Source: Candidatus Doudnabacteria bacterium
Lineage (GTDB): Bacteria; Patescibacteriota; Doudnabacteria; UBA920; O2-02-FULL-48-8
Direction of reading: 5' to 3'
NCBI GenBank assembly: GCA_016182875.1
Contig: JACPFQ010000004.1
Coordinates: 259,515 to 323,514 of the forward strand
DNA: 64,000 nucleotides
Position numbers and translations under genes: made by a program. The notes below the pieces were generated by a model, which saw only the letters and a list, made by a program, of their open reading frames with translations, ran no database searches and had not been told where the DNA came from. Position 1 is the first letter of the stretch. Each line of letters opens with the position of its first letter. Positions 15,580 through 58,917 of the stretch are shown piece by piece.

Positions 15580-15700
15580 ATTAGAATTTCCCTCCCCTTG
15601 CAGGGGAGGGACCAAGGGTGGGGTGGATAGAGGCAACCTCATCCCACCTCTCCCCCGACCCCTCTCCTGGAAGGAGAGGGGAGATCTAATCTGAAGTAAA
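15580..15700. mobile_element. solo (ORF-less) member of the hairpin/G-rich/C-rich element family
   Basis: ccctcccct tgc aggggaggg ... gggtggggtggat ... atcccacctc ... cccctctcc tgga aggagagggg; about 85% identical to 20664-20770. Confidence 0.6.
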
Positions 15701-16941: not shown

Positions 16942-17156
16942 CAAGGTCTTCGGCTCCGTCGAGCTCCTGCCGTAACGCGACGATTGTGCCTGCCCGCCGA
17001 AGTTTTAACGAAGGCGGGAGGGGAATCGTCTTTTATTTTTGCCCAGAATTGCTGGTATAATGGATAGAGCATTAGCCCGCAGTTCCTCCCCTCTCCTTCC
17101 AGGAGAGGAATTCTCTCCCTCATCGGCCGCCGGGGGCTGGTCGGGGGAGAGGTGGG

Positions 17157-17523
17157 ATGAGAATCAACAGGAATCTTTTGCAAAAGTCCAAGCTACAGCG
17201 CAAATCCCAGAATCCCTGGGAAGCCAAGCTTTGGTATTACCTCAGAGCTAAAAGATTCCAGAATTTTAAATTCAGAAGGCAAGTGGTTATTGGTCCTTTT
17301 ATCGTTGATTTTTATTTGCATAAGCTAAGGCTGATCATAGAACTCGACAGTGGGCAGCATAATGAGAATATAAATATACGTAAGGACCAGGGCAGGCAAA
17401 ATATTTATAGATCAAGGCTATACAGTCCTCAGATTCTGGAACAATGAGCTAGACGATAATATAGACGGCGTACTGGATACAATTTACAAAGCTTTAACCA
17501 CCTCTCTCGACCGGAATAATTAA
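17157..17523 (+). pseudogene. DUF559 endonuclease-domain protein, frameshifted (frame change near 17390-17405)
   Basis: N-terminal part KLWYYLRAKRFQNFKFRRQVVIGPFIVDFY..ELDSGQH in frame 0; C-terminal part GYTVLRFWNNELDDNIDGVLDTIY continues in frame +1. Confidence 0.7.
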
Positions 17524-17593
17524 CCTCAGAAGCGGTCGGTCTCTCCTGGAAGGAGAGACAACTGCTGCCTGACGCTTCAGCCAAACCAAATCC

Positions 17594-18511
17594 ATGCCAG
17601 AATTGCCAGAAGTCGAAACCATTGTTCGAGAGCTTAGACCTAAGCTTCGAAACAAAAAAATCAAAGACATCCGCGTCTTGCTGCCAAAAATGGTGGCGCT
17701 GGGGCCGGCGACTTTACCGAATCTTCGAAACACTTCTGGATTAGTGGCAGTTAAATTTGCCAAGACGTTAAAAGGTTTGAAGGTTACAAATGTTAAAAGG
17801 CGCGCGAAGCTTATCATTATCGACTTGGCGGGTAAATATTCTATTTTGGTTCATCTGAAAATGACTGGTCAACTAATTTTTTTAGATAAAAAGCATCTTA
17901 ACAAGCAGATAAGGCTTTTAAACATTCCAACTTTAAAACCTTCTAACCTCCCGGCCAAATCTACGCACGTCATTTTTGATTTCACGGACGGCTCTAGGCT
18001 TTTTTACAATGACTTTCGGCGGTTTGGGTACTTGAAGCTAGTTACTGATCAAGAACTGCCGCACGTCAGGGAATTGCAGGAATACGGTCCTGAGCCGCTT
18101 GACATAAATTTCACGACCGGTAAATTTATGTCAATTGTGAATAAACGACCGAAAGCAAAAATCAAACAATTTTTAATGGATCCAAAAAATATTGCCGGAA
18201 TCGGAAATATTTATTCCGACGAGATTTTGTATTATGCCAAGCTCAGGCCAAATCGGAGAGTGAACAGCCTGACGACGCAGGAGAAAAAAAAGTTATACTT
18301 AGGTATAGCAAAAATCTTGGGCGATGCCGTAGTGCATTACGGTTCATCGGTCGGAGACTTCGTCCGGCCTAGCGGCGATTGGGGGACCTACGGCTTTTTG
18401 CATAAAGTCTATGGCCGGGCAGGAGAAAAATGCAAAGTTTGTGGTAGTATAATAAAGAGCATTAAGTTCAACGGCAGGACGGGAAGTTTCTGTCCTGTTT
18501 GCCAGAAATAG
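17594..18511 (+). CDS. mutM: formamidopyrimidine-DNA glycosylase (Fpg/Nei family)
   Basis: 305 aa; MPELPEVE N-terminus, H2TH region and C-terminal zinc finger CKVCGS...CPVCQ. Confidence 0.85.
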   Translation: MPELPEVETIVRELRPKLRNKKIKDIRVLLPKMVALGPATLPNLRNTSGLVAVKFAKTLKGLKVTNVKRRAKLIIIDLAGKYSILVHLKMTGQLIFLDKKHLNKQIRLLNIPTLKPSNLPAKSTHVIFDFTDGSRLFYNDFRRFGYLKLVTDQELPHVRELQEYGPEPLDINFTTGKFMSIVNKRPKAKIKQFLMDPKNIAGIGNIYSDEILYYAKLRPNRRVNSLTTQEKKKLYLGIAKILGDAVVHYGSSVGDFVRPSGDWGTYGFLHKVYGRAGEKCKVCGSIIKSIKFNGRTGSFCPVCQK

Positions 18512-20583: not shown

Positions 20584-20663
20584 CCGATTATAATTACTAG
20601 TACGAAAAAACAAAATGCCTTGTGGCATTTTTTTAACCAAAGCAATTGATATTAAACGGCAGC

Positions 20664-20770
20664 TTAGGATTTCCCTCCCCTCCCAGGGGAGGGACTAAGG
20701 GTGGGGTGGGTAAAGCAACCTTAAAGCCACCTCTCCCCCGACCCCTCTCCTGCGAGGAGAGGGGAGTTCT
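20664..20770. mobile_element. solo hairpin/G-rich/C-rich element, copy 2 (upstream of groES)
   Basis: ccctcccctcccaggggaggg...gggtggggtgggta...gccacctc...cccctctcctgcgaggagagggg; paralog of 15580-15700. Confidence 0.6.
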
Positions 20771-20788
20771 AAGCAGAAGGAGAACCAA

Positions 20789-29393: not shown

Positions 29394-29591
29394 ATGGCTG
29401 TACCAAAAAAGCATAAAACTAGATCGGGCCGCAATCAACGGCGGGCTCATGACTTTTTGATTAAGACCAACTTGGCAGTTTGCAGCAACTGCAAATACCC
29501 CGTGATGCCGCATGAGGTTTGCCAGAACTGCGGATACTACAAAGGACGGCAGGTTTTGAGGATCAAGGCAAAAACTAAGGCATCGAAATAA
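29394..29591 (+). CDS. rpmF: 50S ribosomal protein L32
   Basis: 65 aa; MAVPKKHKTRSGRNQRRAHD...CSNC...CQNCGYYKG. Confidence 0.85.
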   Translation: MAVPKKHKTRSGRNQRRAHDFLIKTNLAVCSNCKYPVMPHEVCQNCGYYKGRQVLRIKAKTKASK

Positions 29592-38000: not shown

Positions 38001-38773
38001 CGGATGCTTTGATCATCCAGGACAGCCAGGGAGTCCAAGATTCCACCTCATCCGCAGTCACCACTGACCGCGTGGGCAATGAATTGTACGTCTATAAGGG
38101 CACGCCAAAAGTTGAGGTTGTCGATCTGACAAATTCGACCTTGGTCAACGGTTCGGCCCAGGACGTCTACAAATTCAAAGTCACTGGCCAGGGCGGCACG
38201 GTAGCTGTCAAACAGGTTAAGCTTTCTGTGGCTTGGTCTGATGGCGGCACTGCCGACACCCTGGAAGTGGAATCATTGAAGTTCTACAAGAACGACGTTG
38301 ATATCACGGCGAGCGTGACTATGGTTGACGAAGACGGCAATGATGTGGAAACCACCTCCGGATTGACTGAAGATGACGACACACTGGTTGTCACCTTCAC
38401 CACCGAAGATGCCGTGGCTGCCGGCGAATCCGTGACCTACCGGGTCCGCGGCACGCCGCAAGCCTTCCGCGCCACCGGCACTGACACCGTCGGCGACAGT
38501 GTGTCCTTCAATGTCCCGTCTGATGCCAGCCACAACGGCACCTCAGTCTTCTTAAATGACCAGACTGATATTAACGCCGGCCAGTCCGAAATCATGGAGT
38601 TGTTCACTTCCGCCGCCGCTTCATCTAGCGATGGCACTGCTGCCAACTTCATCTGGTCCGACAACTCGGCAACCGCACACGTTTCAACCGCCAATGCCAC
38701 CAGCACTGGCGACTGGGCGAACGGCTACAATGTCCTCAACTTGCCGCTCGACGGCGAGACTTGGACAAAATAA
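35045..38773 (+). CDS. giant secreted surface protein (about 1220 aa; probable start MHTSELTL at 35108) with four N-terminal 45-aa modules and Ig-like beta-rich repeats
   Basis: Signal peptide; repeated G(T)xYLVxxGxKRGF...VFxSxGYSFS module four times; T/S/A/V/G-rich beta-strand repeats. Confidence 0.75.
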   Translation: MIVSYEQLILIQESTYKQEIIMHTSELTLTARKGIALGLAVSTLLWAATLWALPAFVSAAPHSDGCLINSSGTIYLVTGGQKRGFPTAEVFASHGYSFSQVVAASSEDTQAMGPVMVYADGTLVKGPSDPLVYLVANGQKRGFVSGSVFTGLGFSFASIVTAATNTFADLPMGANLESATERHTAGVLAKDSTGTVWQMTATGRKGVPSMEVFNSYGWSWSNVVAANAADTAAANEGVVAARASCSTGATPPPPPAGTMSVSLASNNPVAGTVIAGQGVADLAHFSFSGSGKVTSVVLKRLGVSSDTTLSAVYLYDGYVRLTDSATVSSGTITFNNTAGLFTVAGSRTVTVRSNIAASTSGQTVGVQLFSAAADVGTVSGSPLSGNMHTVAAAPSNFATVDFNATTTPSNATISPQDDYTMWQNVVTVGNTKVRLYAFKLRQVGSVVASDLQNFDLFVDGTKVASVAALDSEGYANFDLSAAPVTLETGSRTIKMLGDIIGGSNRNFAFSLRQAVDGFFVDNDFNQGVLPTAASATFSARGNTDDNLQTISTGTITFTKRADSPSGNVVNAASNVLLAKFDVKAAGESMKVETLRVRIDDDDGDEMTLRNGALYLDGAQIGSTAAISGDTGTDPDYTEYTFGSSFIVVPGTPRVLEVKADIFDNDGTNSVAASDTYQVEIIGSANVQRLTSLGYVSAPSTAAEANTLTVATGSLTAALDTSLANHTIVAPKYGYMIGKYTIQQTTTEGANITSVVVDFDEKADAFDGSDDLTNLYIKMGSYTSPIKATVTDTGNTFSTNVAIAAGQVMALEVYADVAASATNGDGTADTIESSVTVASTTTQSSTSATADEVDGQTITAGAGTFATAVAPDTPVNRITYGNQEVEAARFKITATNETYTLRQWNMKVGASPISSAIVEARLYYGSTLLGSAPFSVTSNTIAQITGLESKAEAVVAANTSRTFSVKLLLNQIGGNYGTSQQNVAVTSDALIIQDSQGVQDSTSSAVTTDRVGNELYVYKGTPKVEVVDLTNSTLVNGSAQDVYKFKVTGQGGTVAVKQVKLSVAWSDGGTADTLEVESLKFYKNDVDITASVTMVDEDGNDVETTSGLTEDDDTLVVTFTTEDAVAAGESVTYRVRGTPQAFRATGTDTVGDSVSFNVPSDASHNGTSVFLNDQTDINAGQSEIMELFTSAAASSSDGTAANFIWSDNSATAHVSTANATSTGDWANGYNVLNLPLDGETWTK

Positions 38774-38841
38774 TCTGAATCTAGCTTGAAGAGCTAATCG
38801 GGTTATTATCCGCCTTCGCTGAAAAGCTTCGGCGGACAGGC

Positions 38842-38875
38842 AAAGCCCCCGCAATTTGCGGGGGCTTTGGTTTGG
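38842..38875 (+). terminator. rho-independent terminator
   Basis: aaagcccccgc aattt gcgggggcttt followed by ggtttgg. Confidence 0.6.
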
Positions 38876-39100
38876 TATAATTTTAGGGCAGTTGGGAGTT
38901 AAAACCCCCTCTTAGAATAAGAGTGGGTAGGGTGAGTTAGACGTAAAGAACCCCTGCCTCTAACCCCTCTGCTCAGCCTAATTCTTAGCATCTCCCCTTG
39001 TTCCAAGGGGAGATGGAACTGCGGCCTTACGCTTTGCCTTAAAGAATTAACTTGCAGTTAAACCCCTCTTAGAATAAGAGGGGGTAGGGGGAGTTAGAAC

Positions 39101-39419
39101 ATGAGCTATTTGTATAATAATTTAAAGCTTAAAAACTTCAGGCGTAAACTAAGAAGCAACCAGACAGACTGTGAAGCCTTGCTCTGGTCTGTGTTGCGAA
39201 ACAAGCAATATAGGCAATTATATCTTAGATTTCTTTTGTCCTAAATTAAGATTGGGAATTGAGCTTGACGGTGGTCAGCACGCCAAGCAAAAACTCTACG
39301 ACAACCAGAGAACCAAATATCTTGAATCACAGAATATTAAAGTCCTTAGATTCTGGGATAACGAGGTGCTTGAGAATCTTGAGGGAGTTTATCAAAAGAT
39401 CTTAGATCATTGCCTCTAA
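39101..39419 (+). pseudogene. DUF559 endonuclease-domain protein disrupted by an internal deletion or frameshift (two frames)
   Basis: MSYLYNNLKLKNFRRKLRSNQTDCEALLWSVLRNKQ (frame 2) then IGNYILDFFCPKLRLGIELDGGQH...KVLRFWDNEVLENLEGVY (frame 0). Confidence 0.7.
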
Positions 39420-39717
39420 CCCCCTCTAACTCCCCCTTGTTCCAAGGGGGAGGATCCCAATTCTTTTCGGGCATTAGTAAATCCCCTCCAATTGCTTGAT
39501 TTCGCTGGAAGTTTTACTATATCCTTACTTAACTTATACTTAGCATTGATATAGCATTTATTTTAGTGTCATCCTGAAACAAGTTTTTGGGATCTCGCTT
39601 AGTTACTGAAAAACCCCCGCCGAAAGGCGGGGGTTTTGTTTGTTGACAGGCTGAATCATTTAATTTATCATAAGTACGAAAGTTATACTTTCTAACTAAA
39701 TTGATTTAGGGAAACTC

Positions 39718-39981
39718 ATGTCCATAGTTAAAGTCAAAAATAAATACCAGGTGACTTTGCCCGCTTATGTCCGCAAGCAAGCCGGAATCGAAATTGGGGA
39801 TATTTTGGAAGCAAAAATTGAAAACGGTAAAATTATGCTTTCACCTCAAAGCACGATTGATAAGAGATTAGCCAAGGCGCTCGAAGAGATAGAGAAGGGC
39901 CAGACTTATGGACCCTTTGATACTGCAGAAGAAATGATCACAGCTCTTCATCGCGAGGTAAAAAAACTTAAGCGAAAGTAG
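39718..39981 (+). CDS. AbrB/MazE/SpoVT-type antitoxin
   Basis: 87 aa; KYQVTLPAYVRKQAGIEIGDIL swapped-hairpin motif. Confidence 0.65.
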   Translation: MSIVKVKNKYQVTLPAYVRKQAGIEIGDILEAKIENGKIMLSPQSTIDKRLAKALEEIEKGQTYGPFDTAEEMITALHREVKKLKRK

Positions 39982-39988
39982 AGTTATA

Positions 39989-40234
39989 ATGAGGCTTGAC
40001 TTTTCGCCTAGTTTTGTGAAAGCCTACAATAAGGCTCCCACAAAAATCCAGCGAGCATTTGACAAACAATCAAAATTGCTTCTTCAAAATTTAAACTACC
40101 CTTCATTGCGCGCCAAGAAATACAGCGAGACAGAAAATATCTGGCAAGCGAGAGTTGATAAATCTTGGCGGTTTTATTTTCGCATCAAAGGCGATGTATA
40201 TTATCTACTTGATATTATTTCTCATCCTAAATAA
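39989..40234 (+). CDS. RelE/ParE-family toxin
   Basis: 81 aa; WQARVDKSWRFYFRIKGDVYYLLDIISHPK C-terminal RelE-like motif; 8-bp gap from the antitoxin gene. Confidence 0.6.
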   Translation: MRLDFSPSFVKAYNKAPTKIQRAFDKQSKLLLQNLNYPSLRAKKYSETENIWQARVDKSWRFYFRIKGDVYYLLDIISHPK

Positions 40235-40239
40235 CTTCC

Positions 40240-40929
40240 ATGAACAAAAAAGCATTATTTATAGGAATCGGAGCCGCCTTGGTTATTTTTTTTGGGTACT
40301 TAGCCTACCAGCAATGGGGGGATAAGCCGCAGTTGGTTACTTACAAGGAGCCAAGCTTAACGGCGGAAGCCAGAGCGATTTATGAGCAGCGTTTGAGCGA
40401 AGCCCAAAAAGCCGTTGCTGAGATCAATGACCAAACTCCGGCCGAAGAAAAATTCAACCGCTATATGGCTTTGGGCAGCGCCAAGTTCAGTTTAGGCTTC
40501 TATCTCGACGCCAAAAACGCTTATCAGCAGGCTTTGGAAGTCATGCCCAACAACGCCTTTGCCTGGCAGGCCCAATCCACCACCCTAACCGCCATGGGCG
40601 ACTACAAAGGAGCTTTGAACGCCATCAAGAAAGCAATTTCCTTGGACCCCAAACAAGCCGATTTCTGGAAGTGGCAAATTGATTTGGAAAAAGACCACTT
40701 CCAGGCAAACAGCGACAGGGTTGACGAGCTTTATGGAGAGGCTTTGAGCAAAACCGATAACAACATCAATATAATCACGGCTTACGCGACCTTTTTGGAG
40801 CAGACAGGCGATTTGGAAGGCGCTTTGGAGCAGTGGCAGAAAGCCTATGAAGTCAATACTGCCCAGCGAGAAGTTTATCAGGCGGAGATAGACAGGCTTC
40901 AGAGGAGGCTGGAGAAACTGCTCAAATAA
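40240..40929 (+). CDS. tetratricopeptide-repeat protein with N-terminal TM anchor
   Basis: 229 aa; several 34-aa A..Y..AL...P.N repeats. Confidence 0.65.
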   Translation: MNKKALFIGIGAALVIFFGYLAYQQWGDKPQLVTYKEPSLTAEARAIYEQRLSEAQKAVAEINDQTPAEEKFNRYMALGSAKFSLGFYLDAKNAYQQALEVMPNNAFAWQAQSTTLTAMGDYKGALNAIKKAISLDPKQADFWKWQIDLEKDHFQANSDRVDELYGEALSKTDNNINIITAYATFLEQTGDLEGALEQWQKAYEVNTAQREVYQAEIDRLQRRLEKLLK

Positions 40930-40989
40930 TTTAAGGATCAGGCAGCAGTTTACCCCTCCTCTTTAGAGGAGGGGTAGGGGAGGAGTTCT

Positions 40990-41388
40990 ATGGTTTTGCC
41001 CAAAACAAAGCTACGCAGAGAATTAAGGCATAATTCAACTCCAGCGGAAAAAGTTTTCTGGGCTATGATTTGCGACAGAAAAGTATTAGATCTAAAATTC
41101 CGCCGTCAGCACAGCATCGGGCCTTACATAGTTGATTTCTACTGCGCGGCACTTAGGTTAATTATAGAGATTGACGGCGATACTCATGGAACTGTTGAGG
41201 GAATTAAAGCTGATAAAAAGCGAACCGCTTATTTAGAATCACTGGGCTATACTGTCCTAAGATACGCAAATTCAGATATACTAAATAACCTTGAAGGAGT
41301 ATTCCAGGATTTAACCAGCAAGCTTCAGAAACTACTGCCTAATTCCACCTCCTCACCCATCCTCTCCTCCTTGCAGGAGGAGAGGTGA
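40990..41388 (+). CDS. DUF559 endonuclease-domain protein (intact)
   Basis: 132 aa; EKVFWAMICDRKVLDLKFRRQHSIGPYIVDFYC..LRLIIEIDGDTH...GYTVLRYANSDI family pattern. Confidence 0.8.
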   Translation: MVLPKTKLRRELRHNSTPAEKVFWAMICDRKVLDLKFRRQHSIGPYIVDFYCAALRLIIEIDGDTHGTVEGIKADKKRTAYLESLGYTVLRYANSDILNNLEGVFQDLTSKLQKLLPNSTSSPILSSLQEER

Positions 41389-41438
41389 AACTGCGAGAAA
41401 CTAGGTCAATTAGAAATTGATTCTATATAACAATAACA

Positions 41439-42173
41439 ATGTATCCAAGAAACAAAAATTTAATCCTTTGGGCGGGAGTTATTTTATTGGCGGGAGTTGC
41501 TGTGGGATTAAATATCCTTAGAAATCCAGCCTTAGTCAGCAAGGAAAGCGAAACAGACCTAAGAAGCGAGACGGAAGCGGTTGGGGGCGAAGCGGTCGAG
41601 CCTGCCAAAGATAACGGTTTAGCATCGCCAGCTCCGCAGCAGCCGCAAACTCCGCTGCCTGCTCAAAATTCATCTTCCCCAGCGGACGTTAAGAGCTACA
41701 AAAACACCGAGTACGAATTCGAGTTCACTTATCCGGCCAGCTTCGGCGAAGTGGCTGAAAAAATTTATCAATGCCCGCGGGGTTTCATGACGATCGGGAC
41801 ATTTATCGGCAACCCCAACATTGATTTTGGGTTTGTCTCGTCTGATTATGAGAAATGCGCGGCAGCCGACGCACCCCTGTTTGAAATTCTGAAGTATGAC
41901 TTGTTGGACAAGAAGTTAAAGCTTTACAGCTCAAACCCGGTTTCACCGACTGTTGAGGTGACGATCGAACAAGTTATACCTACCCGAACCGCCAACATTC
42001 TGGCTTATATTATTAAAAATACTATTGAAGCAGATGGCAACGGTAGCCCCGCGGCTGTTCTCAAAAGCCCAAACCCGGCCATTGGCCCGCTTATTTTTCG
42101 AACCCATGGAATGTCCCATGGAATGTCCTATGAGGATGGAATAAAATTGCTGGAGGCGATTATACAGAATTGA
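41439..42173 (+). CDS. hypothetical membrane-anchored / secreted protein
   Basis: 244 aa; N-terminal TM then PQ-rich linker. Confidence 0.45.
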   Translation: MYPRNKNLILWAGVILLAGVAVGLNILRNPALVSKESETDLRSETEAVGGEAVEPAKDNGLASPAPQQPQTPLPAQNSSSPADVKSYKNTEYEFEFTYPASFGEVAEKIYQCPRGFMTIGTFIGNPNIDFGFVSSDYEKCAAADAPLFEILKYDLLDKKLKLYSSNPVSPTVEVTIEQVIPTRTANILAYIIKNTIEADGNGSPAAVLKSPNPAIGPLIFRTHGMSHGMSYEDGIKLLEAIIQN

Positions 42174-42438: not shown

Positions 42439-44151
42439 GTGTTTGTTGATAAGTCTCAAAACCACAAATTATTAAGGACAATCAATCAAAATATGAAATA
42501 TTTCAAAAATTTTAGCCGGCAAAAAGCCTTGATGGTCTCAGTGCTTGCGCTGGCTTTCTTGGTGGTTGCCGGCGGAGCCTTTGCCGCTCTGACGTTTACC
42601 GCCACTACCACCTCCAGCGACGGCGCTTTAACGATTAGTTCCGCCACCACCAATGCCATAAGTTTGGATTCCGGCACCACTGGCGCTGTCAATCTTGGCA
42701 CTGGCAATAATGCCAAGACCATCAGCATCGGAACCGGCACTGCAGGCAACACCATTAACGTTGGCACGGACAACACTACTCTTGATGCTATTAACGTAGG
42801 TTCAGCCCTGGATACTGTGATCATAACCGGCACAAGCGCAGGATTATCTAAAATTGAGTTGGCGGCAACTCGCCCAACCGGCGCTACGAGCTCTTATCAA
42901 ACACTTGCTGGCGATCTTAACTACGTAGGAGCCGCGGGCGGTACTGGCACATATCACGCTGGCGTCATGGGCAACTTTTTGGGCGATACTCTGACCAACG
43001 CTAATGCCACTATCCACGCCGGCACAATCGGCAAGTACTCTGTGACCACGAGCGACGCTTTGGTTGGACCAAAAGCAGGCTTGGTTGGTGAAGCGGAAAC
43101 TAGCGTTGCCAATGCCGCAGTGATGGCAGTGCTTGGCGGTGATACTGCGACAGTTGCTCCTGGAGCGGCTTATGCTGTCCGTTATCTCAACTCTACGGCA
43201 GCTTCTAAGTTCACTTACGGTCTTGATCTCTTCTCCGCGGCTGTCGGCGGTTACAAGGCCGTTGATTACGGCACAGCCGATATCCGACTTCAAAACGGCG
43301 AGACGATTAGCAACGCCACTGACGGCGCAATCACCATCAGCGGCGCGCTTACTGGCACACCGGCAGTGCTTTCTACTACCACAGCCGGCGGAGGGAGCAA
43401 CCTTAAACTGCAATACAAGCAGATAACCAATGCCTTAACTGGCGACTATGAAGGTTTGCATGTCAGAGTTTCCACTGATGTCGGCTCAGCCGATAATGCC
43501 GTTAACGGCGCCCAAATCAAAGCCGTGGCTAATGACGTGGCTTCCCAGATTGACGTTGAAATTCTCCGCGGCGTTTACACCAGCGTGGATGCCAAAGACA
43601 ATTTGGTCACCACTGCTCGCGCGTTTGAAGCATCACTCGATGGTTTGCCCGGATCAACAATCACCGAAGCCGTAGGCATTGAATTGATGAACAACTCTTC
43701 TGGTGCCCAAACGAACTCCTATGGGCTATCCATCAACGGTGGTACAGCTTCCGGTCATAAAGCATACACAAGAGATATTCGATTGCAAAATGGCGAACTC
43801 ATTGACAACGCCACGGATGGCACGATAGCTTTCTCTGGAATAATTGCGGCAAACGGCGGTTTGGTTCAAAGGTACACGACTAATGCTAATGTTCCAAATG
43901 CGTCTGGCCAAAATGTGATTAGGCTTAACGCATTAGCAGCTGACTTTGCCACGATCGCTGGCGGTACCGCAGGCCAAATTATTACCATCATTTTCAGCGA
44001 TGCAGTGGTGGTGACTGACGACAACGCCAACGGCGCCAATGCGATAAATCTGGTAGGTAGCGCTAACCTTACATCTGCTGCTGATGATGTACTTGAGTTA
44101 GTATTTGACGGAACCAGCTGGTTTGAAGTTTCGCGCTCAGTGAACAACTAA
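42439..44151 (+). CDS. secreted Thr/Gly/Ala/Asn-rich repeat protein (probable start MKYFKNF at 42493)
   Basis: Signal peptide; low-complexity TGTGAVNLGTGNNAKTISIGTG-type repeats. Confidence 0.6.
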   Translation: MFVDKSQNHKLLRTINQNMKYFKNFSRQKALMVSVLALAFLVVAGGAFAALTFTATTTSSDGALTISSATTNAISLDSGTTGAVNLGTGNNAKTISIGTGTAGNTINVGTDNTTLDAINVGSALDTVIITGTSAGLSKIELAATRPTGATSSYQTLAGDLNYVGAAGGTGTYHAGVMGNFLGDTLTNANATIHAGTIGKYSVTTSDALVGPKAGLVGEAETSVANAAVMAVLGGDTATVAPGAAYAVRYLNSTAASKFTYGLDLFSAAVGGYKAVDYGTADIRLQNGETISNATDGAITISGALTGTPAVLSTTTAGGGSNLKLQYKQITNALTGDYEGLHVRVSTDVGSADNAVNGAQIKAVANDVASQIDVEILRGVYTSVDAKDNLVTTARAFEASLDGLPGSTITEAVGIELMNNSSGAQTNSYGLSINGGTASGHKAYTRDIRLQNGELIDNATDGTIAFSGIIAANGGLVQRYTTNANVPNASGQNVIRLNALAADFATIAGGTAGQIITIIFSDAVVVTDDNANGANAINLVGSANLTSAADDVLELVFDGTSWFEVSRSVNN

Positions 44152-44306
44152 GCTTAACCCCGCCTCGCCTTGGCTCGCTAAAGGGGTAGAGCACAAGCGT
44201 AAAGCTTTGGCTCTACCTCCCCTAACCCCTCCTATTCTAGGAGGGGAAAAAACCAAGAGGCGAGTCTAGGCAGGCAATCCTAATCATTAATCATTATGCC
44301 TAAAAT

Positions 44307-57893: not shown

Positions 57894-58276
57894 AAAATAA
57901 CAGGCAAGCCGGTTTATCTTTGATGGAAGTGGTTATAAGCATGGCCATGATACTGGTTCTTTTTATTTTGTATATCGCGGCGCAAAACACGACGATTCAC
58001 ACAAGGAAACTACGCTATGAAAATTTGGCTTACCATGCGGCCAACAAAAAAATGGAAGAACTTCGGGCGACGGCTTTTAATTCACTTCCCGTCTCGGGCG
58101 CCATTTCCGACTCAATGCTTGGCCAAATTCCATCCGGGGCCGGCAGTTTTACGGTCAATGACTACGCCGGCTTCAGCGGTTTGAAGGAAGTTATCGTGAC
58201 TGTAACTTGGAATGACGGCATTAGCAAGCAGGTCGTTTTGAAAACTTTAGCTGGGAGCGGAGGAATTAATCCATGA
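57890..58276 (+). CDS. prepilin-type N-terminal cleavage/methylation domain protein (pseudopilin)
   Basis: 128 aa; QAGLSLMEVVISMAMILVLFI class III signal; overlaps the pilC stop. Confidence 0.7.
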   Translation: MKNNRQAGLSLMEVVISMAMILVLFILYIAAQNTTIHTRKLRYENLAYHAANKKMEELRATAFNSLPVSGAISDSMLGQIPSGAGSFTVNDYAGFSGLKEVIVTVTWNDGISKQVVLKTLAGSGGINP

Positions 58277-58917
58277 CGAGAATGCGGTATATGTTTAACG
58301 GCAGCGCAACGCGTATCGGTAAGCGTTTGACGTTTAGCGATCAGATTTCCCCCCTTGGAACAAGGGGGGATCAAGGGGGGTTAGACGCTGGCTTCACCCT
58401 CATCGAGGTCATAATCGTGGTCTTCATGCTCGGGATGGCCATGCTCGTGCTGACCAGCCTTTTCCTCAACCAAAACCAAGTTTACCAAAGCCAGACCGCG
58501 GAGCTTAACGTCACGGCCGATGCCCGGTTCGCCTTGGACGATATTGATTCCTCGGTTCGAGCCGCGGACGTGGTGGCGGCAAGCTATAGTTCATATACTA
58601 CAGGAACGCAAGTTTTGGTTCTGCAGATTCCTTCCATCAATGCTTCCAACCAAATCATCGCGGCGGCTTATGATTATTTCGTTTACTATCTAACCGGCAG
58701 TGATTTCTTTCGGCAAATCTTCCCCAATGCATCAAGCAGCCGGCAGGCCACAACGAAAAAAATAGCTTCCAATGTCACAGGCTTGCTTTTCAGTTACGAC
58801 AATGGCGACTCGGCTTTGGTTAAGCAAGTGACCACGGACTTAACCATCCAGCAGTCAGGCGGAAGGTACAATCGGTCAATCACAATTTCTTCCAAGTCGA
58901 GATTAAGAAATAACTAA
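58273..58917 (+). CDS. prepilin-type protein with unusually long leader (pilin motif GFTLIEVIIVVFML at residue about 40)
   Basis: 214 aa; the leader region contains a poly-C/poly-G hairpin (ccccccttggaacaagggggg) at 58350-58385. Confidence 0.55.
   Translation: MTRMRYMFNGSATRIGKRLTFSDQISPLGTRGDQGGLDAGFTLIEVIIVVFMLGMAMLVLTSLFLNQNQVYQSQTAELNVTADARFALDDIDSSVRAADVVAASYSSYTTGTQVLVLQIPSINASNQIIAAAYDYFVYYLTGSDFFRQIFPNASSSRQATTKKIASNVTGLLFSYDNGDSALVKQVTTDLTIQQSGGRYNRSITISSKSRLRNN

Follow-up and report, generated by a model that had tools for sequence, protein, structure and literature searches.

The window analyzed here, a 64,000-nucleotide stretch of Candidatus Doudnabacteria contig JACPFQ010000004.1, contains at 40945-41394 a small nuclease gene of the DUF559 family enclosed by hairpins, and the question raised by this locus is what kind of unit gene and hairpins form together. 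A first-pass annotation had recorded an intact DUF559 cassette here, and we indeed find an intact open reading frame (ORF) at 40990 in a frame of hairpins and inverted repeats that also surrounds both defective DUF559 copies in the window. Our analysis identifies 40945-41394 as, almost certainly, an intact copy of a DUF559 cassette that is widespread and has triplex-motif inverted repeats at its ends. The unit comprises 450 bases, with the gene for the 132-amino acid (aa) protein located between two perfect hairpins, each with a pyrimidine arm followed by a purine arm. The upstream hairpin (hairpin 1) had been described as a 9-bp stem with a 4-nt loop; the hairpin exists, but these pairs are only the core of a perfect 12-bp stem with a TT loop. 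The G-rich run reported before the ATG is present (GGGGAGGAG, hereafter G-box); it ends 4 nt ahead of the start codon and likely also serves as ribosome-binding site. As proposed, the 3' end of the ORF is encoded by a C-rich run (hereafter C-box) and by hairpin 2; the C terminus reads ..SSPILSSLQEER, and the TGA stop lies directly 3' of hairpin 2. The earlier feature list had omitted the outer ends, GCAGTT and AACTGC. With them, the terminal inverted repeats consist of GCAGTT..AACTGC and, at each end, of a hairpin and box in inverted arrangement. GCAGTT and AACTGC also enclose a frameshifted copy (copy 1, 17079/17560) and an ORF-less copy (38888/39017), the internally deleted copy 2 has the left GCAGTT (39054), and the end motif recurs in the related loci L082, L002, and L089 (L-numbers label the loci compared throughout). 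In the window, 13 hairpins with at least 8 bp are pyrimidine-first, compared with 0.40 ± 0.58 in 40 dinucleotide shuffles, which is more than chance would provide, and none is purine-first.

Each end of the cassette contains a third segment next to the two hairpin arms. The left end is composed of a pyrimidine block (40953-62), a purine block (40965-74), and a purine mirror block (40977-85, 9 of 9 positions), and the right end of a pyrimidine mirror block (41345-58, mirror score 0.82), a pyrimidine block (41361-71), and a purine block (41375-85). Because the G-box mirrors the purine arm and the C-box nearly mirrors the pyrimidine arm, each end represents a three-block pyrimidine-purine-purine motif or its complement. 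Judged by its sequence, each end has the architecture of the BoxC / TM_ECO intrastrand triplex motif published by Bachellier, Hoyne/Maher, and Holder et al., a known repeat type that the first-pass annotation had missed in listing a hairpin and a G-rich run (PMC4666352). The TM_ECO pattern reported by Holder et al. (2015, PMC4666352) is CCCTCNCCC N3-6 GGGNGAGGG N3 GGGNGAGGG; they counted 3610 copies in 262 proteobacterial genomes and 23 copies in MG1655, five of which occur as inverted pairs. Common to both repeats are the succession of C-rich arm, short loop, G-rich arm, short loop, and second, mirrored G-rich arm, second loops reading TTA or CCG (seen also in the metagenome motif matches of this analysis), and an occurrence as single motifs or inverted pairs that are mainly intergenic and tied to local genome variability. 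The window motifs differ in their arms (CCCCTCCTCT and CCTCTCCTCCT, with 2-3 nt loops), which do not match the TM_ECO consensus, and in their host, which belongs to the candidate phyla radiation (CPR) and not to the Proteobacteria. They also bracket a nuclease gene, whereas no associated gene or mobility function is reported for the published TM_ECO repeats. The consensus form itself flanks DUF559 genes in other phyla, for example in L006 and L014. TM_ECO sites show raised local variability between strains and copy numbers that vary widely by strain; Holder et al. found no mobility function nearby and mention neither an endonuclease nor DUF559, and earlier work cited by them assigned the repeat no promoter or terminator activity (PMC4666352). 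Counting TM_ECO copies per Escherichia coli genome by megablast returned only 1-3 places each and was unusable for an analysis of co-occurrence; Salmonella reportedly lacks TM_ECO.

The 132-aa protein matches Pfam family PF04480 over profile positions 5-108 of 109 (113.4 bits at a cut-off of 20.6, E 5.9e-33). In a search with a profile built from 30 homologues, matches were obtained to PDB entry 3HRL (E 2e-33) and to I-Bth0305I, a homing endonuclease (3R3P, E 2.8e-4), and a Vsr/I-Bth0305I fold has already been published for the DUF559 family (PMC3424549, PMC3239194). An AlphaFold model of the protein (mean predicted local distance difference test score 84.9, below 50 in the tail) aligns in Foldseek with 3HRL (TM score 0.92, root mean square deviation 1.3, E 5.8e-8), with I-Bth0305I (TM score 0.82) and, distantly, with E. 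coli Vsr (1VSR, E 0.015, TM score 0.52); a Pfam scan of the protein returned no match to the Vsr family PF03852 at E ≤ 0.01. Residues E20, D49, E60, D62, H66, and D75 are invariant in the alignment of the 30 homologues. The Vsr active site (E25, D51, H64, H69, D97) corresponds to E170, D196, N208, H213, and D222 in I-Bth0305I (PMC3239194), and we mapped the active site of the window protein through the alignment with 3R3P, which is off by one residue at H66, so that the assignment of H66 is indirect. E60 occupies the position of Vsr F62. The concern that the catalytic residues might be lacking is not borne out, as a full Vsr/I-Bth0305I-type set appears to be present and is invariant in the homologues. 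The protein consists of the catalytic domain and a disordered tail, it has no N-terminal NUMOD/helix-turn-helix region, and the cassette is intergenic. The C-box and hairpin 2 encode residues 119-132, which the model shows as disordered, and the stop codon is found before the C-box in L083, in the hairpin loop in L082, just past the stem in the window, and 15 nt beyond it in L002. As its position varies around hairpin 2 among close relatives, the tail is a translated repeat rather than a conserved feature of the protein. The family is large, with 3882 matches at E ≤ 1e-5 among 3897 scored word-sharing candidates from a clustered protein database. Several Toxoplasma and Tetrahymena mitoribosomal large-subunit proteins also match the model in Foldseek (E 4e-4 to 4e-3). 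DUF559-like domains have reportedly been described in apicomplexan proteins (bioRxiv 10.1101/2023.06.05.543710), in agreement with these mitoribosomal matches.

We compared the window copy with its relatives. The dN/dS ratio is 0.04 for the window copy and L082 and 0.05 for L002 and L083, in pairs whose synonymous sites are saturated (pS 0.74-0.94). Despite this saturation, hardly any position differs between the window and L082 from GCAGTT onward through hairpin 1 and G-box up to the ATG. Relatives retain the stems and vary in the loops; hairpin 2 of L082, for example, has the same stem and a changed loop. These alignments show that the protein is under purifying selection and that the cassette ends are under a nucleotide-level selection of their own. 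The conservation of the element boundaries, on which the earlier proposal had been made to depend, is thus seen in the relatives.

How general this arrangement is was assessed in 80 DUF559 loci from a scan of one genome per species. They come from CPR phyla, Nitrospirota, Cyanobacteria, Bacteroidota, Verrucomicrobiota, Proteobacteria, and others, and include one Methanophagales archaeon. Perfect, pyrimidine-first hairpins of at least 7 bp lie no more than 160 nt upstream of the gene in 55 of 76 loci and downstream in 50 of 79 (both sides, 38 of 75; neither side, 10 of 75), compared with a background of 0.034 per 190 nt elsewhere in the same loci. Of the hairpins within 300 nt of DUF559, 182 are pyrimidine-first and 6 purine-first, the background being 80 versus 37 in 640 kb, and a mirror third block accompanies 78 of 157 DUF559-adjacent hairpins versus 4 of 157 with shuffled flanks. 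Near-identical motifs recur across more than 10 phyla, and many homologues carry PSP..L..GEG-type tails or heads that are translations of the motifs. The loops of the upstream and downstream hairpins are mutually reverse-complementary in many loci, which indicates that the ends are true inverted repeats and not duplicated targets. In free-standing copies, the window copy among them, the mirror block is next to the ORF (G-box after the upstream hairpin, 15:2; C-box before the downstream hairpin, 11:1) and thereby places a GGAGG-type sequence before the start codon. About a third of the DUF559 genes in viral contigs also have such hairpins.

In 24 of the 80 loci, the DUF559 ORF and its hairpin "linkers" are located in frame inside a long gene (hsdM, hsdR, or metH), and here the motif orientation is flipped (12:4 and 13:1). 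The insertion point in hsdM is constant in several phyla, after ..TQIPAxLWF.. and before ..ILFIDAR, and E. coli hsdM, whose flanks are 67.5% identical and which has no 432-nt insert, represents the uninterrupted counterpart. In hsdR at least three insertion sites are found, and in Flavobacterium two metH genes are interrupted. The interrupted hsdR genes encode ∼1250 aa and the hsdM genes ∼700-790 aa, and hsdR of L072 additionally holds two ORF-less motifs in frame. The domains flanking the 80 loci include SWI2_SNF2 (14), ResIII (13), HSDR_N (12), N6_Mtase (9), HsdM_N (9), and Methylase_S (4).

Copies of the cassette differ within the window and among related genomes. The first-pass annotation rightly called the copy at 40990 the only intact one in the window, the two others being frameshifted or internally deleted (tblastn matches at 17157-17514, frameshifted, 39% identical, and at 39102-39420, 48% identical). 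Its further claim that this is the likely active endonuclease of the family went too far. The three copies are 39-48% identical, are framed by like hairpins whose sequences differ by copy, and belong to three subfamilies, which leaves an active endonuclease "of the family" unproven. Three ORF-less double motifs (solos A, B, and C) accompany them. Solos A and B have a common internal junction, including a remnant of a copy-1-type ORF 3' end, and were thus copied as solos. A hairpin with G-box at 58348-58385 (TCCCCCCTTG-gaa-CAAGGGGGGA tcaagggggg) lies in frame in a prepilin-like ORF (58273..58917), where the translated repeat in the N-terminal leader reads ..SPLGTRGDQGGLDAGFTLIEVIIVVFMLG.., and a lone hairpin (CCCCTCCTA-ttc-TAGGAGGGG, 44226-44246) is found just past a 570-aa ORF (42439..44151).

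The four closest relatives of the window copy (65-77% identical) represent four different contexts: between a TPR gene and a gene of no assigned family (X) in the window, after a 378-aa gene in L082, between sugar transferase and glycosyltransferase genes in L002, and after a type IV secretion system (T4SS)-like ATPase gene in L083. In the Doudnabacteria relatives L084-L087, Fpg is 73-79% identical and the order fpg-x-x-groES-groEL is kept, and these loci have neither the 117-nt solo B before groES nor copy 1 upstream of fpg. Solo B lies past the preceding gene's terminator and ahead of the groES ribosome-binding site; since only ∼15-25 nt are present at this site in L084-L087, it is an insertion in the window lineage. 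In the relatives, the fpg ATG is within ∼10 nt of the -10 box (TATAAT). In the window the start codon is at 17594 and copy 1 lies between box and start, so that fpg must now be transcribed through the element. The MazE-ParE-TPR-X block holds the 40945-41394 copy between TPR and X in the window, a copy-1-subfamily DUF559 gene with the same GGCAGCAGTT..AACTGCG ends at the same site in L089, and a right-end remnant only in L090, where cassettes are located between ParE and TPR and after X. We conclude that such cassettes and their ORF-less derivatives very probably shift position over evolutionary time. The TPR gene closes with codons (..agaggaggctggagaaactgctc.., 40901-40922) that look like a right cassette end (purine arm and GAAACTGC); this resemblance is common to L089 and not to L090, and the segment may be an older, absorbed element end or a coincidence. 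Two further routes were set aside: GCAGTT..AACTGC as an unoccupied target site has its sole match at 29475-29492 inside an rpmF-like gene and is coincidental, and programmed inversion was considered on account of a list that includes DUF559 as a predicted inversion target (gene-pair inverted repeats), undiscussed there (PMC9881135).

Features of the cassette at 40945-41394, other copies in the window, and loci with embedded copies
Feature	Position	Strand	Details
Left outer terminal motif GCAGTT	40945..40950	+	Inverse AACTGC at right end
Hairpin 1	40951..40976	+	Perfect 12-bp stem TACCCCTCCTCT/AGAGGAGGGGTA (40951-40962 / 40965-40976), TT loop
G-box GGGGAGGAG	40977..40985	+	Exact mirror repeat of purine arm GAGGAGGGG (40966-40974)
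DUF559 ORF, 132 aa	40990..41388	+	Core residues 1-115; tail 119-132 from C-box and hairpin 2
C-box CCACCTCCTCACCC	41345..41358	+	Near-mirror of hairpin 2 pyrimidine arm (score 0.82); complementary to G-box
Hairpin 2	41361..41385	+	Perfect 11-bp stem CCTCTCCTCCT/AGGAGGAGAGG (41361-41371 / 41375-41385), TGC loop
Right outer terminal motif AACTGC	41389..41394	+	
Copy 1, frameshifted DUF559 cassette	17068..17576	+	Other subfamily; between fpg -10 box and start codon
Copy 2, DUF559 cassette with internal deletion and frameshift	39054..39455	+	Third subfamily
Solo A, ORF-less double motif	15588..15685	+	Long hairpin, -68.8 kcal/mol, z -5.2
Solo B, ORF-less double motif, 117 nt	20656..20772	+	Upstream of groES
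Solo C, ORF-less double motif, copy-2 type	38888..39022	+	Both GCAGTT/AACTGC ends
Embedded-copy loci	L072 2924..6739; L014, L017, L004, L011, L030, L031, L042, L057; L033, L069		

At the RNA level, the predicted minimum free energy fold of the whole unit pairs GCAGUUU with AAACUGC, forms both hairpins, and pairs G-box with C-box (z -4.2), and each ORF-less copy is predicted to fold into one long hairpin. An Rfam scan of 38500-42000 (E ≤ 1) gave no match on the hairpins, there are no terminator-like sites in 40600-41700 and a T-tract follows neither hairpin, and a promoter scan found no match upstream of the ORF and no promoter consensus inside the element. Flanking genes are co-oriented with DUF559 in 121 of 150 cases. 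An RNA-level role of the ends, in stability or in translational gating by G-box:C-box pairing, can be reconciled with a mobile cassette as well as with a repeat that spreads by itself.

Our best reading, put forward tentatively, is that the nuclease cassette, with its inverted triplex-motif ends, is a selfish element devoid of a promoter. It combines a gene for a ∼110-aa DUF559 nuclease with an inverted BoxC/TM-type pair (hairpin and mirror third segment) and resides between host genes, in their orientation, probably being transcribed by read-through; the purine-rich G-box probably provides the ribosome-binding site, and the 5' and 3' ends could pair. The targets of the nuclease would be the cassette ends, as palindromes or structures, or their ORF-less copies; it would nick or cut there, upon which recombinational repair would copy the cassette in, as in homing; loss of the ORF would generate double-motif solos that persist and multiply. 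That the nuclease itself drives the spread, by cutting structured ends or ORF-less copies that are then repaired by copying the cassette, is rather less likely than not; it is suggested by the kinship with a homing endonuclease fold, the decaying copies, the in-frame insertions, and the lack of another candidate gene. DUF559 is the sole ORF of the cassette, and no transposase is present in the top 25 flank families, a census that did not extend to the whole window. We regard it as rather unlikely that DUF559 proteins are the missing enzymes that cut BoxC/TM repeats, and form with them a new nuclease-only mobile element, in-frame or intergenic, across phyla and in at least one archaeon. On this bolder reading, the pyrimidine/purine ends, in which few stop codons occur in any frame, would allow in-frame insertion into hsdM, hsdR, and metH. 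Differences between copies of pyrimidine-only and purine-only arms are transitions and in a heteroduplex would give T:G or C:A mismatches, and a Vsr-like T:G nickase could keep the stems perfectly paired and G/C-rich.

Several observations weigh against a selfish cassette driven by its nuclease. A 110-aa PD-(D/E)XK nuclease cannot rejoin DNA and thus cannot alone explain the spread of 100-nt solos. Among 94 metagenomic instances of CCCTCTCCC-NNN-GGGAGAGGG that could be tested, DUF559 lies within 250 nt in only 4, so that the repeats could spread otherwise, with DUF559 merely associated. The element at the TPR/X site seems old (present or as a remnant in three lineages, neighbors ∼50% identical), which implies slow turnover. 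A clean excision footprint was not found, nor could a target-site duplication be read at groES, fpg, or hsdM, where the compared genomes are only 67-79% identical. The TM_ECO triplex formed in vitro on single-stranded DNA and was undetected in vivo (PMC4666352), and the literature searched gave no binding or cleavage data for any DUF559 protein.

The chief rival, which we consider improbable, is modeled on repetitive extragenic palindromic (REP) sequences and their REP-associated tyrosine transposases (RAYTs): the triplex-motif repeat would be the spreading unit, and DUF559 a trans-acting, possibly host-kept enzyme that processes or maintains it, with the gene flanked by its own substrates and the cassette not a unit of spread. 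Solos outnumber DUF559-linked motifs by ∼20:1 (the 4 of 94 above) and most DUF559 genes are framed by motifs, such that the repeat is far commoner than the gene, the same numerical pattern as for REP/RAYT. Solos A and B were copied as solos, the generic motifs have ordinary metabolic genes as neighbors with no enrichment of transposases or restriction-modification (R-M) genes in their flanks, and TM_ECO numbers are strain-variable with no mobility gene known (PMC4666352). In long open frames we find 39 of the 94 generic motifs versus 67% of random positions, a comparison from which we draw no conclusion, as high G+C inflates open frames, and 3 of 10 metagenomic hairpin pairs spaced 250-900 nt hold DUF559, the rest containing no recognizable small gene. 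However, DUF559 lacks the HUH/Y1 chemistry of cutting and rejoining, hairpin sequence tracks the DUF559 subfamily within one genome, and several degenerate copies per genome, variable sites, and in-frame hsdM/hsdR/metH copies look selfish and not like a single domesticated gene.

A less probable alternative makes DUF559 an ordinary host repair or housekeeping nuclease, whose hairpins act on the RNA as mRNA stabilizer or in translational control and whose location varies by recombination at repeats. Strong purifying selection on the protein, the predicted fold that joins the ends, co-oriented neighbors, and the age of the TPR/X element would all suit such a gene. Left unexplained are the frameshifted and deleted copies beside the intact one, ORF-less derivatives at new loci, different subfamilies at one site, in-frame insertion at fixed hsdM and several hsdR points in many phyla, and near-identical motifs across more than 10 phyla; TM_ECO also had no promoter or terminator activity in the earlier work cited in PMC4666352. 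The dominance of type I R-M domains in the flanks of the 80 best loci, and the listing of COG2852 among defense-island families (PMC7251935), could instead point to an accessory nuclease of R-M or defense systems, with hairpin linkers that tolerate domain insertion and with the window copy as a detached relic. We judge this very improbable, given that an R-M gene adjoins none of the three window copies, that close relatives adjoin sugar transferase, T4SS-like ATPase, or TPR genes, and that cassettes occur inside metH too and generic motifs without R-M enrichment. Hairpins are common after genes, yet the view that an unremarkable gene is surrounded here by hairpins due to chance or by mere intrinsic terminators is hardly credible in view of the missing T-tracts and terminator-like sites, the 13 pyrimidine-first hairpins where 0.4 are expected with no purine-first ones, and the enrichment across phyla.

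Comparison with known systems places the cassette between several of them. With I-Bth0305I, a dimer that cuts a pseudo-palindromic target (PMC3239194), the window protein shares the Vsr-like catalytic fold, the catalytic residue set, the status of a selfish nuclease gene, and a sporadic distribution (PMC3239194; 3R3P). I-Bth0305I has its own N-terminal NUMOD/helix-turn-helix region and a group I intron or intein setting, whereas the window protein is a bare 110-aa domain in a hairpin-bounded cassette for which presence and absence at orthologous sites are indirect evidence of homing. The REP/BIME-RAYT systems (BIME, bacterial interspersed mosaic element) likewise have a gene flanked by inverted short structured repeats that are far more abundant elsewhere, with a repeat unit of hairpin and adjacent conserved non-palindromic segment (PMC2817692, PMC3333891). 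In contrast to the PD-(D/E)XK/Vsr-like DUF559, RAYTs are HUH Y1 transposases that cut and rejoin single strands, and REPs are lineage-specific whereas motifs of the window type are nearly unchanged across phyla. The in-gene, translated copies, such as the hairpin at 58348 in the prepilin-like ORF and the solos in L072 hsdR, have parallels in other repeats. MITEs (miniature inverted-repeat transposable elements) and Rickettsia palindromic elements are short, palindromic, ORF-less derivatives copied around the genome, some of them translated in frame. The difference is that no DDE-type transposase or target-site duplication was seen here, and that an autonomous partner, if any, would be no more than a nuclease. 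YcjD of E. coli and NGO0050 of N. gonorrhoeae (PDB 3HRL) belong to the same DUF559 family as the window protein; ycjD differs in having a hairpin at its 3' end only, which is degenerate. In L294 (E. coli K-12, NC_000913.3 1351000-1352400), ycjD ends in ..RRSPSP over this degenerate pyrimidine/purine hairpin, and a partial duplicate of the ycjD 3' end is located downstream. The gene is found at ≥80% cover in 3378 of 5426 complete E. coli genomes. As a filled/empty pair it gave no clean junction, the inspected strain holding a different gene there.

The DUF559 family, its fold, and the BoxC/TM repeats are known already; the link between DUF559 and the repeats appears to be the new part. In our literature search we found nothing linking the two and no account of DUF559 cassettes framed by hairpins or of their in-frame insertion into hsdM, hsdR, or metH, in a corpus that mostly excludes subscription journals, so that prior notice is possible. 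DUF559 is among the commonest uncharacterized nuclease families, and the BoxC/TM repeats have been known for decades as abundant and linked to genome instability (PMC4666352); the cassette suggests which enzyme might handle them. If nuclease and repeat are partners, both could be examined in simple assays of binding, cleavage, and homing, an explanation would exist for the Pro/Ser...Gly/Glu/Arg tails and inserts that recur in many annotated proteins, and a source of in-frame domain insertion into R-M genes would be identified. If they are not, the value lies in annotation, with such tails and many small ORFs over motifs being translated repeats.

The four ORFs neighboring the cassette are assigned by Pfam to MazE, a ParE-like toxin, TPR, and no family, with no methyltransferase among them, such as the cytosine methyltransferase that would accompany a Vsr gene proper. 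In L083, a Doudnabacteria-like contig, a distance of 6 kb separates the DUF559 cassette from a 23S_rRNA_IVP / bAvd-family gene (1-143). The interval 39718-40234 of the window, located between copy 2 and TPR, holds a gene for a MazE-family antitoxin (PF04014, E 8e-13) and, after it, the ParE-like toxin gene, whose match is weak and under the Pfam cut-off (E 2.8e-4); the MazE-ParE pair is syntenic in L089 and L090.

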